In this document: positions 2,151 through 54,684 of the stretch, piece after piece
Position numbering within the stretch: the stretch's first letter is position 1
Layout of the letters: each line of letters opens with the position of its first letter
DNA from: a phage
Sequence record: PZ445440.1
Reading direction: 5' to 3' (one strand)
DNA length: 64,000 nt
Notes under the pieces: generated by a model
Told to the model about the DNA's origin: nothing
Database searches by the model: none
What the model saw: only the letters and a program-made list of their open reading frames with translations
Program-made: the position numbers and the translations under genes

Positions 2151-2721
2151 AAAAGTTTCGGATTTGTTCCCAATTCAGAGAACGAAGATTATTACGAGAG
2201 TACTGAATTACTTCAATACCAGCTTGTTTAAGAATGTCTGTCCAATTTTCAGGAGACCGGTCATATAATTCTGCATATACAACCTTTTTAATGCCTGACT
2301 GTGTGATAGCTTTAGTGCAATCAGGACACGGAGAAAGCGTAGTATATAACGTAGCACCTTCAATAGAATTACCTTTACGAGCAGCAAACAAAATTGCATT
2401 CAATTCCGCATGGATTTCGTTATTAGCAGACCATGCACTATGAGCGGCCCGATGTTCTTTAGCCAAAACAAAATTATCTGCCCGTCCAAATGCTGTAGTG
2501 CCTTCTTTATGCCCAGCAACGATGACCGGGCTTGGTTTATTCTTCAACCAACCTTGTTCGGTAGCATGGTCACAACAGTTTGTACCACCTGAAGGAGACC
2601 CATTATAACCCGTAGAGATAATGCGCCCATCTTTTTCAATGACGGCACCAACTTTCCATGAACAACATTTTGATTCTTGAGAAATCAAATAAGCAATTTG
2701 AAGATATGTGCTAGCTTTCAT
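2140..2721 (-). CDS. cd: dCMP deaminase
   Basis: 193 aa; zinc-deaminase motifs HAELNA...PCxxC (CDA fold); length equals T4 Cd. Confidence 0.9.
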   Translation of the reverse strand: MKASTYLQIAYLISQESKCCSWKVGAVIEKDGRIISTGYNGSPSGGTNCCDHATEQGWLKNKPSPVIVAGHKEGTTAFGRADNFVLAKEHRAAHSAWSANNEIHAELNAILFAARKGNSIEGATLYTTLSPCPDCTKAITQSGIKKVVYAELYDRSPENWTDILKQAGIEVIQYSRNNLRSLNWEQIRNFCGE

Positions 2722-15615: not shown

Positions 15616-16518
15616 TTATAGACCAGCTAACAGGTCATCGAGGTCGCCATCATCAGAGGATGAGGTAGAGCTCATGAAGTCATCTTCAGTTTTTGCAGAA
15701 CTAAAGGCTTCCATGTCTTTATCAAAATCGTCAAGGTCAGAAGCAACTTTATCTGCAACAGAAGCTGCTGCGGCTGCTGCACCACCAAGAGCGGCAGTAC
15801 CAAGAACCTTAGCGAAAGATTCATTTAATTTTTCAAAGGATTTGAACTGGTCTTTAGCCGTCAAAGTAGTAAGGTCTACCATCTGGTCATATAGTTCTTT
15901 CTGGAATGCTTCGTCATTAATACGAGGAATTTCAGATTGACCCAAGAATTTAGATTCGTCATAGTTGCTAAAACCGGAAACCTGCTTAGCTTTCAGAACG
16001 AAGTTAGCACCTTCAAATGGGCAAGTAACATCAACTGGAGTTTCACCCATTTCGGTATCAACTGCAATCATTGCATTGATTTTGTCCCAAATCTTTTTAC
16101 CGAAACGATATTTAAATACTTTACCTTCGTTATCTGGAGCTTGAGGGTCTTTAACAACCAGAATATTGGCCCAATAAGAGGTTTTACGTTTCAGTTGAGA
16201 ATATTCAGCTTTGTTGGTATTGTACAGGTCATTTTTACTAATGTACTGACATACAGGACAAGAGTCGTAATCACCATGTGTAGAAGAGCAATTTTCAATA
16301 TACCATTTACCATTTTTCTTGAAACCGTGGTTAACAAGAATTGCAAATGGTAGTGCATCATCAGTTTTTGCTGGCAAGAAACGAATTACCGCTTGACCAT
16401 TACCGGATGCATCTAGCTTCAGCTTCCATTCGCCTTTATCTTCTGAAGAGAAACCTTTGTTACCATTCAGTTTAGCCATTTGAGCAGCGAGGTCAGCAGT
16501 AGATTTACGTTTAAACAT
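15616..16518 (-). CDS. 32: single-stranded DNA-binding protein gp32
   Basis: 300 aa; near-identity to recalled T4 gp32 over the core (zinc-site [14 protein letters not shown]), acidic C-terminal tail. Confidence 0.95.
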
Positions 16519-17629: not shown

Positions 17630-17876
17630 AAAGCTCGACTACCTCTTCGTTTTCAGCTTCAAATTGGTCACGAGCGTCTTTATGATAAAGAGCCAACAAA
17701 CGATTAAACATTTTTCCATCTACGCCAAGCTCTTCTTTAGCGCGAGTACGAATGTCTTTAATCAGTTCATTATAACCAGAAATTTTAAGTTTGTTATCGG
17801 AAGCTTCCTTGACTAGTTTAGCCAGTTCTTCACCATGCACATCTTGATTAAATTCAACCGCTTCTTTCTTAGCCAT
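17607..17876 (-). CDS. dsbA: dsDNA-binding protein DsbA
   Basis: Track ORF trimmed to Met7 (MAKKEAV) giving 89 aa as in T4 DsbA; avoids overlap with rnh. Confidence 0.7.
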   Translation of the reverse strand: MAKKEAVEFNQDVHGEELAKLVKEASDNKLKISGYNELIKDIRTRAKEELGVDGKMFNRLLALYHKDARDQFEAENEEVVELYDTVFTK

Positions 17877-17883
17877 GTTTACC

Positions 17884-18801
17884 TCAGAATTCATTAATTA
17901 CACTTGTTAATTTAGAAAGACCCGATTTTACAAAGTATGAATAAATCTTGCCTTTAGGTTGTGGTTTATACGAGTTATAATACTCTATAATGGTTGAAGC
18001 AATATTATCAGGGATATAATCAAAATCAATGAGAACCAAATTTTCTTGATACCGTTTATATTCTTCTGCACTTAATAATACTTCAGCTTGAGAACGGTCA
18101 TTGGCAATTGCTTCAATAATCGTTGTTTTCATGCTCGGAGTTCGTTCACCATCAACTCTGGTAAACCAGAAGTCGCCACGAACTCGAACAGATGCAACAC
18201 CATCTTTACGGTCGCCTTTAAGAATTTTAGTCATGCAATCAATTTCGGCAGAACCATTCTTAATTTTAACCCATTTTTTCTGTGGTGGCGACCACTGTTT
18301 AACGTTAGGGTATTTGTGTAATTGTGTAAAGTCGCCATCTGATGCAACAATACACACCTTATGACCAGCTAATGACAAATATTTAGTTAATACACCGATA
18401 TGGTCATCCGCTTCATATTTGTCAATATCCATTACAACGTATGGCATGTATTTCTTAATCTCATCAACAACTTGATGGAGTGCAGTAAAATATCCTTCCC
18501 AATCCCACTTTGAAGCTTCACGATCGGTTTTACGATTTTTCTTGTAATAGTAAGCAAAGTCACGTCGCCAATAACCTGAAGTAGCATTATCCATACACAA
18601 TACAAATTTTGTATAGCCTTGCCTACGGAACATCACTACGTTTTTACGAATTGAATTCAAGATTACATGGCGAACCATCGGAACAGTAATTTTATCGCCG
18701 TCTTCAAAGTTGTTTAATGCGGCTGCCAATGCAATGTTACTAAAGTCGGCAAGCGCAATACCTTCTTTGTAATCTTCATCCAACATCATTTCTAAATCCA
18801 T
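17884..18801 (-). CDS. rnh: RNase H (5'-3' exonuclease/FEN)
   Basis: 305 aa; near-identical to recalled T4 RNase H N-terminus (MDLEMMLDEDYKEG) and same length. Confidence 0.9.
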   Translation of the reverse strand: MDLEMMLDEDYKEGIALADFSNIALAAALNNFEDGDKITVPMVRHVILNSIRKNVVMFRRQGYTKFVLCMDNATSGYWRRDFAYYYKKNRKTDREASKWDWEGYFTALHQVVDEIKKYMPYVVMDIDKYEADDHIGVLTKYLSLAGHKVCIVASDGDFTQLHKYPNVKQWSPPQKKWVKIKNGSAEIDCMTKILKGDRKDGVASVRVRGDFWFTRVDGERTPSMKTTIIEAIANDRSQAEVLLSAEEYKRYQENLVLIDFDYIPDNIASTIIEYYNSYKPQPKGKIYSYFVKSGLSKLTSVINEF

Positions 18802-23947: not shown

Positions 23948-24604
23948 ATGGCCGATTTAAAAGCCGGAAGTACAGTTGGTGGTTCCGTCATATGGCATCA
24001 AGGCAATTTTCCTTTAATGCCAGCTGGCGACGACATCCTATATAAAACATTTAAATTATACACCGAATATAACAAGCCAAAAGCGGCTGATAACGATTTC
24101 GTATCTAAAGCAAATGGTGGGACATATCTCAAAAAGGTAATCTTTAACGAAGGTATTTCAGTCAAAACAGCAGATGACCAAACGAATGGTATTTTTTCTG
24201 GTGGTGGTGACGCCGCGACATTCGACCAAACAAACATGGATATTGTTTCGTGGTATGGTATTGGGTTTAAATCATCTCAAGGTACAGGTGAAAGAACTGT
24301 TGTAATTGATACTCGCACCGGTAATATAGGTTCTAAAGGCGTTATTGAAGCATCTCAATTCAGAGCCACAACGTTAGCACCTTTAAATAATTACGACCTT
24401 ACTCGCAAAGATTATGTTGATAGTCAAATAAATACAGTTAATGCTAATGCAAACTCTAGGGTATCACGCTCTGGAGATATGATGACCGGCGCTCTAACCG
24501 CCCCAAACTTTTTCTCACAGAATCCTGCATCTCAACCCTCACATGTTCCACGATTTGACCAAATTGTTATTAAGGATTCTGTTCAAGATTTCGGCTATTA
24601 TTAA
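23948..24604 (+). CDS. 36: long tail fibre distal connector gp36
   Basis: 218 aa; strong identity to recalled T4 gp36 (MADLK.GST.GGSVIWHQGNFPL). Confidence 0.9.
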   Translation: MADLKAGSTVGGSVIWHQGNFPLMPAGDDILYKTFKLYTEYNKPKAADNDFVSKANGGTYLKKVIFNEGISVKTADDQTNGIFSGGGDAATFDQTNMDIVSWYGIGFKSSQGTGERTVVIDTRTGNIGSKGVIEASQFRATTLAPLNNYDLTRKDYVDSQINTVNANANSRVSRSGDMMTGALTAPNFFSQNPASQPSHVPRFDQIVIKDSVQDFGYY

Positions 24605-28695: not shown

Positions 28696-29355
28696 ATGGC
28701 AGCACCAAAAGTATCATTTTCGCCTAGTGATATTTTATTTGGGTTGCTAGACCGCATTTTCAAAGATAACGCCTCTGGAAATATTCTTATTTCAAGAGTT
28801 GCTGTTGTAGTTCTTTTGTTCCTAATGGCACTAATATGGTACAAAGGGAATATTTTTATGGATTATTACGTGAGGTCGAAATATGATACTTACACAGAAG
28901 TAATTCAAAAAGAAAGAAATACACGATTTGAATCTGCGGCTTTAGAACAACTACAAATAGTCCACGTCACATCAAGGGCGGATTTTAGTTCGGTGTATTC
29001 TTTCAGACCTAAAAATCTAAATTATTTCGTCGACCTTATTGCGTATGAAGGTAAGTTACCTAGCACAGTAACTGAAAAATCTATGGGAGGATTTCCTGTT
29101 GATAAAACGACAGCAGAATATTCGGTCCATTTAAGTGGACTTCACTTTACTTCTAAAACAGATTTTGCTTTCTTACCTACAAAATCAAAAACTCCGGAAC
29201 TGGTGTATATGTATAGTTGTCCTTACTTCAATTTGGATAACATATATGCTGGAACTGTTTCTATGTATTGGTATAAGGGGTCGGATGTGTTAAATGAAGA
29301 ACGCTTGGCTGCAATATGCAACCAAGCAGCAAGGATATTAGGGCGGGCTAAATAA
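28696..29355 (+). CDS. t: holin T
   Basis: Track ORF trimmed to Met5 (MAAPK) behind GGGAGG RBS; 219 aa; near-identical to recalled T4 holin (single N-terminal TM plus large periplasmic domain). Confidence 0.9.
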   Translation: MAAPKVSFSPSDILFGLLDRIFKDNASGNILISRVAVVVLLFLMALIWYKGNIFMDYYVRSKYDTYTEVIQKERNTRFESAALEQLQIVHVTSRADFSSVYSFRPKNLNYFVDLIAYEGKLPSTVTEKSMGGFPVDKTTAEYSVHLSGLHFTSKTDFAFLPTKSKTPELVYMYSCPYFNLDNIYAGTVSMYWYKGSDVLNEERLAAICNQAARILGRAK

Positions 29356-52277: not shown

Positions 52278-52308
52278 AATTAACTCCTTTGTTGTTTAAT
52301 TACAGGTG

Positions 52309-52316
52309 TATTTATA
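52309..52316 (-). promoter_or_regulatory. late promoter TATAAATA (minus strand) upstream of soc
   Basis: Exact octamer on minus strand about 32 nt upstream of soc start. Confidence 0.55.
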
Positions 52317-52322
52317 ACTTAA

Positions 52323-52844
52323 TTAGTAACCATTATCCTGACGTTCAAAGTTGTGTTGGTTTTTCAGATAATACAGTTTGAAGATTTCTTCAGCAGAAAG
52401 TCCTAGACCTTGGAACATATTCAGAACAAAGTGGAGGATATCAATCATCTCGAATTTAATTTCAAGCTGGTCTTCAGGAGACAGTTCATCGATACGACGA
52501 TTTCGATATTCAGCATGTTGTGCTTTCCAAGGCTTCCATACAGAGCTAGCGGCTTTTTCACCATTGCTCATACCGCCGAGTGAAGTCAGCAGTTCACGGA
52601 ATTCATCATCAATATAATCTTTCTGATTACGCAGCCAATCAACAACATCACCAGCAGTAGCCAATTCATCAGGATGTTTGTTATGTTCAGGCTTGTCATT
52701 TGCCAGACGAACCTGTAAAGATTTCTGCATATCAAGCATTACCTGCAGTGGGTCTTTATCTTCGTGAATCAGAGCATTAAAATAAGCTTCTTCTGCTTTA
52801 TCAACACCAGAAATAAGTTGTGAACATTCGTTAAAGTGTGCCAT
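52323..52844 (-). CDS. 56: dCTP pyrophosphatase gp56 (MazG-like)
   Basis: Track ORF trimmed to MAHFNEC start; about 173 aa; close match to recalled T4 gp56. Confidence 0.85.
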   Translation of the reverse strand: MAHFNECSQLISGVDKAEEAYFNALIHEDKDPLQVMLDMQKSLQVRLANDKPEHNKHPDELATAGDVVDWLRNQKDYIDDEFRELLTSLGGMSNGEKAASSVWKPWKAQHAEYRNRRIDELSPEDQLEIKFEMIDILHFVLNMFQGLGLSAEEIFKLYYLKNQHNFERQDNGY

Positions 52845-52933
52845 TATTTTTCCTTTCAATTCAGTATAAGAGAGTTTAATTCTAACATTAATTTTATAAA
52901 GCGTAATAAATAATAGGTAACTAAGGAGATATT

Positions 52934-53131
52934 ATGTTTAAACTTCCATCGTTAATCAACGCTATTAAAGGCAATAAAAAGAAAACTGCTATCGCTGCAA
53001 TAGTTGTAGGTGGCATTATTTCATGGAACTTCGGGATTGCACCATTGTTAGTTGCCCATGGTATTATAGTTCCTTCTGTTCCGTTGGATACTGTGGTTGA
53101 TTTGGCCTTTGCTATTATAGGGCTTGTTTAA
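52934..53131 (+). CDS. small hydrophobic protein (65 aa) on opposite strand
   Basis: ORF track; strong AAGGAG RBS 7 nt upstream; two predicted hydrophobic helices; convergent with gene 61. Confidence 0.4.
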   Translation: MFKLPSLINAIKGNKKKTAIAAIVVGGIISWNFGIAPLLVAHGIIVPSVPLDTVVDLAFAIIGLV

Positions 53132-54150
53132 ATCTTCGAATAACGAGATAATCTCATTTTAGCATGCAACCCACTTGAAATATTCTGTTTCATATATTCT
53201 AAAATTTCTTGTGGTGTTGCATTTTCTTTCATTACCATATCATTCACATCCTTTGAACTCCATGGAGCTCTATCCCAGAACATAACACGTTCGCCTGCAT
53301 CTACTAATCGCTTCATACGAGCTATAGTATCCGGATGCCTAGGTTCATTATCCATCACCCATACCCGACGTTCTTTAAATGGTACCACATCTAAATCTAT
53401 TGAGCCGCCTGTAATAGCGATTGCATTGGGTATGAATAAACTATCAATAGGGCCTTCCATTACCCAGACGTCTCCTTCCTTAACACGTTCAACACCGTAA
53501 ATTTTTGTTGCCGACTCAAACGCTTTAATAGTGATATATTTCTGAGGAGCATCTTTACGAAGTGCACGTCCTTGGAATGACTCGGCCTTACCATCTTTAT
53601 TAAAAATAGGAATCACTAAACGTGGTTCGGGAATCTCTTTCTTATACGTACCAGGTTGAATCTTGTTGACCAATTTAGGCCATTCTAATGTGAACCATAG
53701 TCTATTCCATGATTCTTTAGGAATGCATCTAGACTTAACATATTTCACAATAGGATGCTCTTCAGGCAGCTTGTCCAGACGAGAACAAGACGGCAAAGAA
53801 TTTATAGTCTTTTTCTCCGGTTCTGGTTTGTGTTCAGGAACCTTTTCAATCTTTGGTTCCATTCTAGCTTTTTCTTTACGAACTTCCATTAGATACTCGC
53901 GATAAAGCTCTTCATCATACTCTTTTAAGTATCCGGAAATTGTATTATGGTATTGACAGTTATAGCAATGTACATTACCAGGAGTACCGCCATAATACCA
54001 TCCGCGAGCTTTCATTGCATCTGTCTGGGAGTCGCCACAAACCGGACATCGAAATGTTAATTTAAATGTGCTTGAATTATTGATTTGTCTAAAACGAGGT
54101 AGGTGAGAAAACGCACGATAAGCAAATTCATTATCTATCCATTCAGCCAT
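53128..54150 (-). CDS. 61: DNA primase gp61
   Basis: 340 aa; zinc ribbon CPVCGDS...CYNC and TOPRIM core; near-identical blocks to recalled T4 gp61. Confidence 0.9.
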   Translation of the reverse strand: MAEWIDNEFAYRAFSHLPRFRQINNSSTFKLTFRCPVCGDSQTDAMKARGWYYGGTPGNVHCYNCQYHNTISGYLKEYDEELYREYLMEVRKEKARMEPKIEKVPEHKPEPEKKTINSLPSCSRLDKLPEEHPIVKYVKSRCIPKESWNRLWFTLEWPKLVNKIQPGTYKKEIPEPRLVIPIFNKDGKAESFQGRALRKDAPQKYITIKAFESATKIYGVERVKEGDVWVMEGPIDSLFIPNAIAITGGSIDLDVVPFKERRVWVMDNEPRHPDTIARMKRLVDAGERVMFWDRAPWSSKDVNDMVMKENATPQEILEYMKQNISSGLHAKMRLSRYSKI

Positions 54151-54189
54151 AGTATTCTCCAGAGGCCTTAAATTAATAAGGCCATCTTA

Positions 54190-54684
54190 TCACAACTTAT
54201 TAATATTTACTTTAATTCGCTTTCTTTTCTTGGAAGGAATTTGTTCGGGACCTTTATTTACAATTGCACCTGTAGTAGTTCCTGATGCAATAGCTTGAGG
54301 ATTGCCGTCTGAATCACCAGCAACCATATCCTCAAATAAAGGGAGTTCTTTAAATATTTCTTTCTGTTGTTCTTCAGTAATGTTATAGCGTGAAGCTACA
54401 GCACTCCAAGCAGACATCATTGATGCCATTCCATTAAGACCTGGAACAGTGTTCATCATTCGCTTCATTGAACGAACTGAAGCATGAAAAGGTGTATACG
54501 CCGCTTTCTCTTCAGGAGTGGAAGGACGTTTAAGAACACTTCCACGTTCATCGATGATTTTGGCTTCATATGCTTTCCATTCGGTAAAAGGTTTTTGCAT
54601 TAGTCGAATAAACTTATATGCGTAAACAGAATCTATTGCAGTGTTAATAATACCCATAGGTACCTCCTGAGTATATTTAATCAA
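54190..54684 (-). CDS. hypothetical protein (164 aa), 61.1-position
   Basis: ORF track. Confidence 0.45.
   Translation of the reverse strand: MIKYTQEVPMGIINTAIDSVYAYKFIRLMQKPFTEWKAYEAKIIDERGSVLKRPSTPEEKAAYTPFHASVRSMKRMMNTVPGLNGMASMMSAWSAVASRYNITEEQQKEIFKELPLFEDMVAGDSDGNPQAIASGTTTGAIVNKGPEQIPSKKRKRIKVNINKL

Follow-up and report, generated by a model that had tools for sequence, protein, structure and literature searches.

The gene 56-61 interval of Escherichia phage Bas46: a conserved, probably late small membrane-protein gene, and dam as an apparent accessory cassette of T4 relatives

The interval between genes 56 and 61 of Escherichia phage ChristianSchoenbein (Bas46) has a layout that is common in the Tevenvirinae, in which predicted back-to-back promoters are followed by a small gene that converges on the primase gene. 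A joint reading of the locus can be held with good confidence: the layout is a common one, the small gene is conserved and probably encodes a late inner-membrane protein, and dam, which lies in the same interval in T4, is an accessory cassette. The dam gene is absent from the Bas46 genome and has not moved to another place in it.

Layout of the interval and the late-promoter motif

The DNA analysed here (the window, a stretch of 64,000 nt) matched the genome of Bas46 (MZ501056.1) at 100% over positions 52300-54200 in a megablast search. Bas46 belongs to the RB69 group of the genus Mosigvirus (Straboviridae, Tevenvirinae). Positions in the record MZ501056.1 are converted to window positions, which are used throughout unless stated otherwise, by subtracting 32478. 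The complete Bas46 genome of 169,031 bp was obtained by joining the window with three fetched pieces, and the overlaps were verified. About 155 Mosigvirus records carry the 1.9-kb arrangement of the Bas46 locus at 95% identity or more. The interval itself covers 283 bp (52845..53127) and contains a single ORF, on the + strand. The features of the locus are as follows:

52323..52844, - strand: gene 56 (dCTPase/dUTPase; bas46_0125), the left border, starting at 52844 with its annotated ATG; PHROG 173, nucleoside triphosphate pyrophosphohydrolase, E=1.6e-45
52871..52911, - strand: predicted MotA-type middle promoter of gene 56, the counterpart of RB69 Pm:16038(-), a prediction of Nolan et al. (2006)
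52905..52912, + strand: AATAAATA, a late promoter motif of the T4 type that differs from TATAAATA by an A at -13 and is separated from the ATG of the small ORF by 21 nt
52923..52928, + strand: Shine-Dalgarno sequence AAGGAG, 5 nt ahead of the ATG, read from the sequence
52934..53131, + strand: 65-aa ORF (bas46_0126; RB69ORF029w family; phrog_2024), 85412-85609 in the record
53128..53131, both strands: TTAA, read from the sequence, where the small ORF (+) and gene 61 (-) overlap in their stop codons
53128..54150, - strand: gene 61 (DNA primase; bas46_0127), the right border; PHROG 47, E=3.8e-102

The initial annotation had described an interval of about 280 bp with one plus-strand ORF of 65 aa, preceded by an AAGGAG ribosome-binding site and convergent with gene 61, and the layout bears out this description in each of its parts. 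In the GenBank record, the ATT codon at 52931-52933 is taken as the start of CDS bas46_0126, 3 nt ahead of the ATG (52934); in phi25-307 and RB69, the RefSeq orthologs begin at the ATG.

The middle promoter of gene 56 was predicted at RB69 15998-16038 (Nolan et al., 2006) and was transferred to the window with an offset of +36873, by which the start of RB69ORF029w at 16061 corresponds to 52934. Its putative elements on the minus strand are a MotA-box-like CGCTTTA (52903-52897) and, after 12 nt, a -10 sequence TAGAAT (52884-52879). This predicted promoter and the late motif on the plus strand stand back to back in the 89-bp intergenic region, with an overlap of 7 bp. In the T4 annotation, the gene 56 transcript is the primer RNA of the replication origin oriA; because of this annotation, the intergenic region at 52871-52912 may, by analogy, also be origin-related.

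The T4 late promoter consists of TATAAATA at -13 to -6 (PMC2988020), and an A at -13 is the commonest T4 variant and is frequent in RB69-type phages (PMC2988020, PMC1524935). The motif AATAAATA ahead of the small ORF is of this type and is located near the Shine-Dalgarno sequence and start codon, as in a T4-type late gene; from its position we infer a transcription start at about 52918. Sites of the form WATAAATA were fewer in the 64-kb window than expected from shuffles (8 vs 16.4). In seven cases, a same-strand start codon follows after 19-116 nt, namely that of the small ORF, rIII, 32, 34, 36, t or soc. We take the last six genes to be expressed late in T4. The eighth site, AATAAATA at 24427-24434 (+), is found inside gene 36, 178 nt before gene 37, and it alone among the eight has no start codon directly after it. 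Genome-wide, where the motif is likewise depleted, 23 of the 39 sites are followed within 120 nt by a Shine-Dalgarno sequence, an ATG and an ORF; random positions gave 2.7 on average and 8 at most. Some T4 late genes with TATAAATA, among them the neighbouring soc, are located on the map's 'early' side; the small ORF resembles them in its strong Shine-Dalgarno sequence and in the distance from motif to start, which is 21 nt as against 19-34 nt for 34, 36, t and soc in the window. It differs from them in the first base of the motif, which is A and not T.

The motif has also been kept in other genera. ATAAATA lies 16-22 nt from the ATG in the orthologs of T4, RB32-type phages, Gaprivervirus and ERS-1, while AATAAATA precedes the Dhakavirus ortholog and a perfect TATAAATA precedes that of Marfavirus F48. 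Only ATTAAATA is found upstream of the S16 ortholog. In T4, RB32, Gaprivervirus, Dhakavirus and Marfavirus, (N)ATAAATA is kept although the flanks are unrelated; the first base of the motif is A, G or C in the orthologs examined and T only in Marfavirus F48. In T4, the motif is located inside the dam-associated insertion, in sequence unrelated to that of RB32, and has therefore either persisted or arisen again independently of the flanking sequence. All orthologs keep AAGGAG(G) or AGGAGG. The 31 late promoters predicted in RB69 by Nolan et al. (2006) include none upstream of RB69ORF029w.

Judged from these upstream sequences, the small ORF is most likely a late gene with gp55-dependent transcription. 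The initial annotation had considered an ORF on the opposite strand unusual in this region; the strand loses its oddity because a late-promoter motif stands directly upstream, and late genes and transcripts of T4 can be of either polarity (PMC2988020).

Conservation of the small gene and its predicted product

The 65-aa ORF is, as comparison of related genomes shows, a real and conserved gene under purifying selection. It was already annotated, as a hypothetical protein, and has been catalogued since the RB69 genome. It matches phrog_2024 over its full length (residues 1-65 of 65; E=1.9e-27) and differs from RB69ORF029w in one residue. RB69ORF029w and RB32ORF030w, the latter annotated in RB32 as 'similar to RB69ORF029w', belong to phrog_2024 (pVOG VOG1982) and have the same position, convergent orientation and TTAA overlap; the Bas46 ORF is that gene. 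A literature search for RB69ORF029w, phrog_2024 and VOG1982 found nothing.

By tblastn, 693 phage records contain a match to the ORF; among those listed that carry annotation, it stands beside the primase gene. Family members are located between gene 56 (or dam) and gene 61 and are convergent on gene 61. The TTAA stop overlap with gene 61 is also present in T4, RB32, RB69, S16 and EcWhh-1; Gaprivervirus is without it and has a spacer of about 118 bp before gene 61. The dN/dS ratio was 0.04-0.37 in every computable pair of Mosig-, Tequatro- and Gapriverviruses (Nei-Gojobori), and between genera 45-55% of the residues are retained, although synonymous sites are saturated. The ORF overlaps with other genes only in the 4 nt of the stop codons, and therefore this selection at the protein level acts on the ORF's own product.

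An exhaustive HMM search for distant homologs among 1.84 billion representatives returned only two clusters, and a word-indexed sequence search returned only 7 close relatives. The wider family was detected via synteny, beyond the reach of the sequence searches, and includes the following homologs:

Dhakavirus EcWhh-1: type B homolog of 66 aa, in the slot between 56 and 61
Marfavirus F48 (L019 ~2320-2515, minus strand of that locus): type B homolog of 64 aa, without annotation, lying within the 225 bp that separate the primase gene from gene 56
Gaprivervirus TH41 (L007 ~2708-2908, + strand): second, tandem copy of type B (MGTLFYQIWKLTSKKDKK…), between the ORF and gene 61
Gelderlandvirus S16: gp16.1, type C homolog of 69 aa, in the slot between 56 and 61

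The type B paralog of TH41 has its own Shine-Dalgarno sequence and is without a promoter motif of its own, and the type B copy at the equivalent place in CJ20 (L008) is decayed in appearance. W31, N32, P37, G43, P47 and G63 are invariant across the three subtypes, which align in register save for small differences in N-terminal length and a 2-residue gap in S16; pairwise BLASTP between subtypes gave E=5e-6. Krischvirus FL20 has no space for the ORF; 14 bp separate the primase gene from the next gene, which is annotated 'dUTPase' and which we take to be the counterpart of gene 56.

The T4 homolog is an ORF of 66 aa on the + strand (17738-17938; L003 4239-4439), flanked by dam and gene 61. Neither the reference NC_000866.4 nor the 1984 record X01416 has it as a feature, and the exact T4 protein sequence is present in the protein collection only from raw-read assemblies. 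With the Bas46 ORF it shares the motifs AIKGNKK, WNF, AHG and (L)DTxVDLAFA, the Shine-Dalgarno sequence, the overlap of its stop codon with that of gene 61, and an ATAAATA heptamer at a distance of 21 nt upstream; it differs in its upstream neighbour, which is dam rather than gene 56.

The protein is predicted to be a single-pass, N-in/C-out inner-membrane protein with a short periplasmic helix. The two hydrophobic helices of the initial annotation were retained in part: two hydrophobic segments are present, but only the first (~18-41) is long enough to cross the membrane, and the AF2 model shows the second as a helix of 12 residues. This model was built from an 8-sequence alignment, has a mean pLDDT of 80 and places helices at residues 3-11, 15-41 and 51-62. 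For RB69ORF029w, residues 21-41 were predicted in 2006 to form a TM segment, and a signal peptide was not predicted. The first 20 residues have a net charge of +5 and the stretch from residue 42 onward one of -2, which, together with the AF2 helices, favours the N-in/C-out orientation with one span. In Mosigvirus, TM1 is rich in Gly and Ala and of marginal hydrophobicity (+2.4 kcal/mol as a crude Hessa-scale sum), and its stable insertion is not certain. A SAR domain was considered and dropped; the TM helix is Gly/Ala-rich in Mosigvirus and not in the Gaprivervirus orthologs. The protein had no matches in Pfam, NCBIfam or PADLOC. A sequence profile search of the PDB gave no usable match (the sole one had E=0.42), and a fold search against viral models returned homologs only. 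At the nucleotide level, no Rfam families were found in 52600-53400, and repeats and inverted repeats in the 56-61 interval were limited to short, chance-level matches.

A different reading of the locus is that it is mainly regulatory, with a late transcript from AATAAATA running antisense into gene 61 and lowering primase late in infection, while the peptide is secondary. Such a transcript could enter gene 61, because the stop codons overlap (in Mosig-, Tequatro-, Dhaka- and Gelderlandviruses) and because no intrinsic-terminator-like site was found on either strand in 52300-54300; in T4, both strands serve as templates for transcription at differing times at several sites (PMC2988020). However, the protein shows clear purifying selection with synonymous sites at saturation, and in Gaprivervirus about 118 bp or a second paralog lie between the ORF and gene 61. 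Because of these two observations, antisense regulation is unlikely to be the main role. The untranslated RNA beyond the stop codon would, moreover, be a target of Rho. Antisense read-through into gene 61 is plausible as a secondary role, and it is compatible with a role for the protein.

Less probable again is that the ORF encodes a small holin or holin-like lysis protein. The product is small and probably late, with a predicted TM helix (~15-41), and its top match in BFVD, A0A482MZV5, with 63 aa and 54% identity, bears the label 'Holin [Escherichia phage vB_EcoM_OE5505]'. This label was rejected as evidence; it is a depositor's name without visible support, and all named cluster members examined are labelled hypothetical or uncharacterised. 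The distribution of charge is not that of a holin, in which a hydrophilic, highly charged and usually basic domain is C-terminal: the charged domain of the Bas46 protein is N-terminal, and its C-terminus is hydrophobic (…DLAFAIIGLV), with a charge of -2 and no basic tail. Linkage to an endolysin or lysis cassette was not found either, the ORF being about 49 kb from the endolysin gene e (134593-135093 in the record), and Bas46 already has a T-type holin at window 28696-29355 as well as spanins. No Pfam family of any kind matched at E<=10. The T4 RI antiholin, Imm and class II/III holins are like the Bas46 protein in small size, in a single N-terminal-proximal TM segment and in probable expression when lysis is timed. 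They have no sequence or profile similarity to it, and, unlike them, the Bas46 ORF is without a basic C-terminal tail, a sizeable periplasmic domain or a location among lysis genes.

Absence of dam from Bas46 and its distribution among T4 relatives

In T4 (NC_000866.4), the gene order is 56, dam, a 310-bp gap without annotation, and 61, in agreement with the position of T4 dam given in the initial annotation, which had also remarked that dam is missing between genes 56 and 61 of the present phage. It is missing there and genome-wide. A Dam homolog was not found in the full 169,031-bp Bas46 genome, where the best tblastn match of T4 Dam had E=1.7, and no methyltransferase is annotated anywhere in that genome. 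The motif [DNS]PP[YFW] occurs only twice, in stop-to-stop frames with lengths of 107 and 159 codons. Thus, neither Dam homology nor a DPPY motif in a methyltransferase-sized protein points to a Dam or other D12-class N6-adenine methyltransferase in Bas46, and relocation of dam elsewhere in the genome was ruled out by the tblastn search and the motif scan together. T4 Dam, a D12-class N6-adenine methyltransferase acting on GATC, is without a counterpart in Bas46; only the expected map position is shared.

The small ORF had initially been described as standing 'instead' of dam. T4 carries dam and the homologous ORF side by side, and the ORF is therefore not a substitute for dam. The order 56-ORF-61 without dam at the locus was found in the Tequatroviruses RB32, teqskov, HMD-9 and KNP1 and, in other genera, in CJ20 and TH41 (Gaprivervirus), S16 and EcWhh-1. 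In an alignment of T4 with RB32, the roughly 900 bp of T4 L003 3327-4225, which hold dam and its flanks, are matched by 20 bp of RB32, and homology restarts 13 nt ahead of the ATG of the small ORF, so that dam forms a clean indel. T4-type Dam (90% identity or more) is present in about 182 phage records, and the non-Mosigvirus form of the small ORF in about 533. From the dam-less loci of Tequatrovirus, Gaprivervirus, S16 and EcWhh-1 and from these record counts, dam is therefore an accessory cassette, an insertion of about 900 bp that a subset of Tequatroviruses, T4 among them, have between gene 56 and the ORF. By the same comparison, the dam-less 56-61 locus is the common state among T4 relatives, and the absence of dam is not distinctive.

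T4 and RB32 also differ within gene 56, where they are about 75% identical (L003 2771-3326 vs L013 902-1460); the adjoining region of the ORF and gene 61 is 97% identical. This drop in identity forms a sharp mosaic boundary beside the T4 homing-endonuclease gene segF.

The absence of dam had been thought, in the initial annotation, to fit a different strategy of DNA protection, and a fuller version of this idea would have the small ORF displace dam as a reflection of such a switch. Beyond the lack of dam in the interval and in the genome, two features agree with it. Mosigviruses have mono- and di-arabinosylated 5-hydroxy-dC in place of glucosyl-hmC (PMC13390438), and arabinose-pathway genes and an arabinosyltransferase are annotated in Bas46. 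In addition, GATC is strongly depleted in the Bas46 genome (123 observed vs about 551 expected, O/E 0.22) and is the only strongly depleted 4-bp palindrome, all others having ratios of 0.77-1.25. The replacement itself is already refuted by the T4 locus, with its adjacent dam and ORF, and the 65-aa hydrophobic peptide is without methyltransferase features. While the modification of the genus does differ, glucosyl-type Tequatroviruses that carry the ORF are also without dam at the locus, and so the absence of dam is not evidence for a different DNA protection; cytosine modification type and dam presence are not visibly coupled. Depletion of GATC is likewise seen both in the dam-carrying, Tequatrovirus-like HP3 (O/E 0.41 over 100 kb) and in KNP1, which has no dam at the locus or in the 100 kb read (O/E 0.38). 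GATC depletion therefore does not track dam within Tequatrovirus, and a link between dam loss and GATC avoidance was dropped. A 3.6-kb Krischvirus sample had a GATC O/E of 1.0. Displacement of dam by the small ORF is thus very improbable.

The weakest of the alternatives, a chance open frame in AT-rich intergenic DNA that is not expressed, would suit a short ORF without a known domain that is not annotated in the T4 reference, but it can practically be dismissed in view of the 693 records found by tblastn, the equivalent slot in at least six genera, the dN/dS values of 0.04-0.37 and the conserved Shine-Dalgarno sequence, start codon and promoter motif.

Proposed role and significance

As a conserved and probably late gene for an inner-membrane protein, the small ORF can be given a tentative mode of action. 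RNA polymerase with gp55 would transcribe the gene late from AATAAATA at 52905-52912, and the strong ribosome-binding site would drive translation of the 65-aa protein. The basic, amphipathic N-terminus (+5) would remain in the cytoplasm, residues ~15-41 would form one TM helix with the invariant Trp-Asn in mid-membrane and with Pro37 and Gly43 invariant as well, and the short acidic C-terminal helix would face the periplasm. A conserved polar Asn in a TM helix is generally associated with helix-helix association in membrane proteins. Because such an Asn is conserved inside this helix, the sequence suggests that the protein acts by association of TM helices, either with itself or with another late inner-membrane protein. 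Proteins of lysis or lysis inhibition are the most obvious candidates as partners, although this is a guess.

A more speculative proposal, and one that we consider rather doubtful as a whole, is that the gene represents an overlooked late function of the T-even phages. A 7-kDa inner-membrane protein would bind, via its Trp-Asn, the holin/antiholin/spanin apparatus or would serve a head-assembly step at the membrane, and would modulate the timing of lysis, its inhibition or late superinfection behaviour; the convergent transcript might in addition damp primase.

For genome biology at large, the locus is of little significance, the gene having been catalogued since RB69 and dam being a known accessory gene. 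Its practical use lies in correction. The ORF is not to be taken as a substitute for dam, and a conserved gene under selection is absent from the T4 reference at 17738-17938(+). With a small, probably late membrane protein that is spread across at least six genera, the gene is a candidate for a tractable 'unknown' in the best-studied phage.
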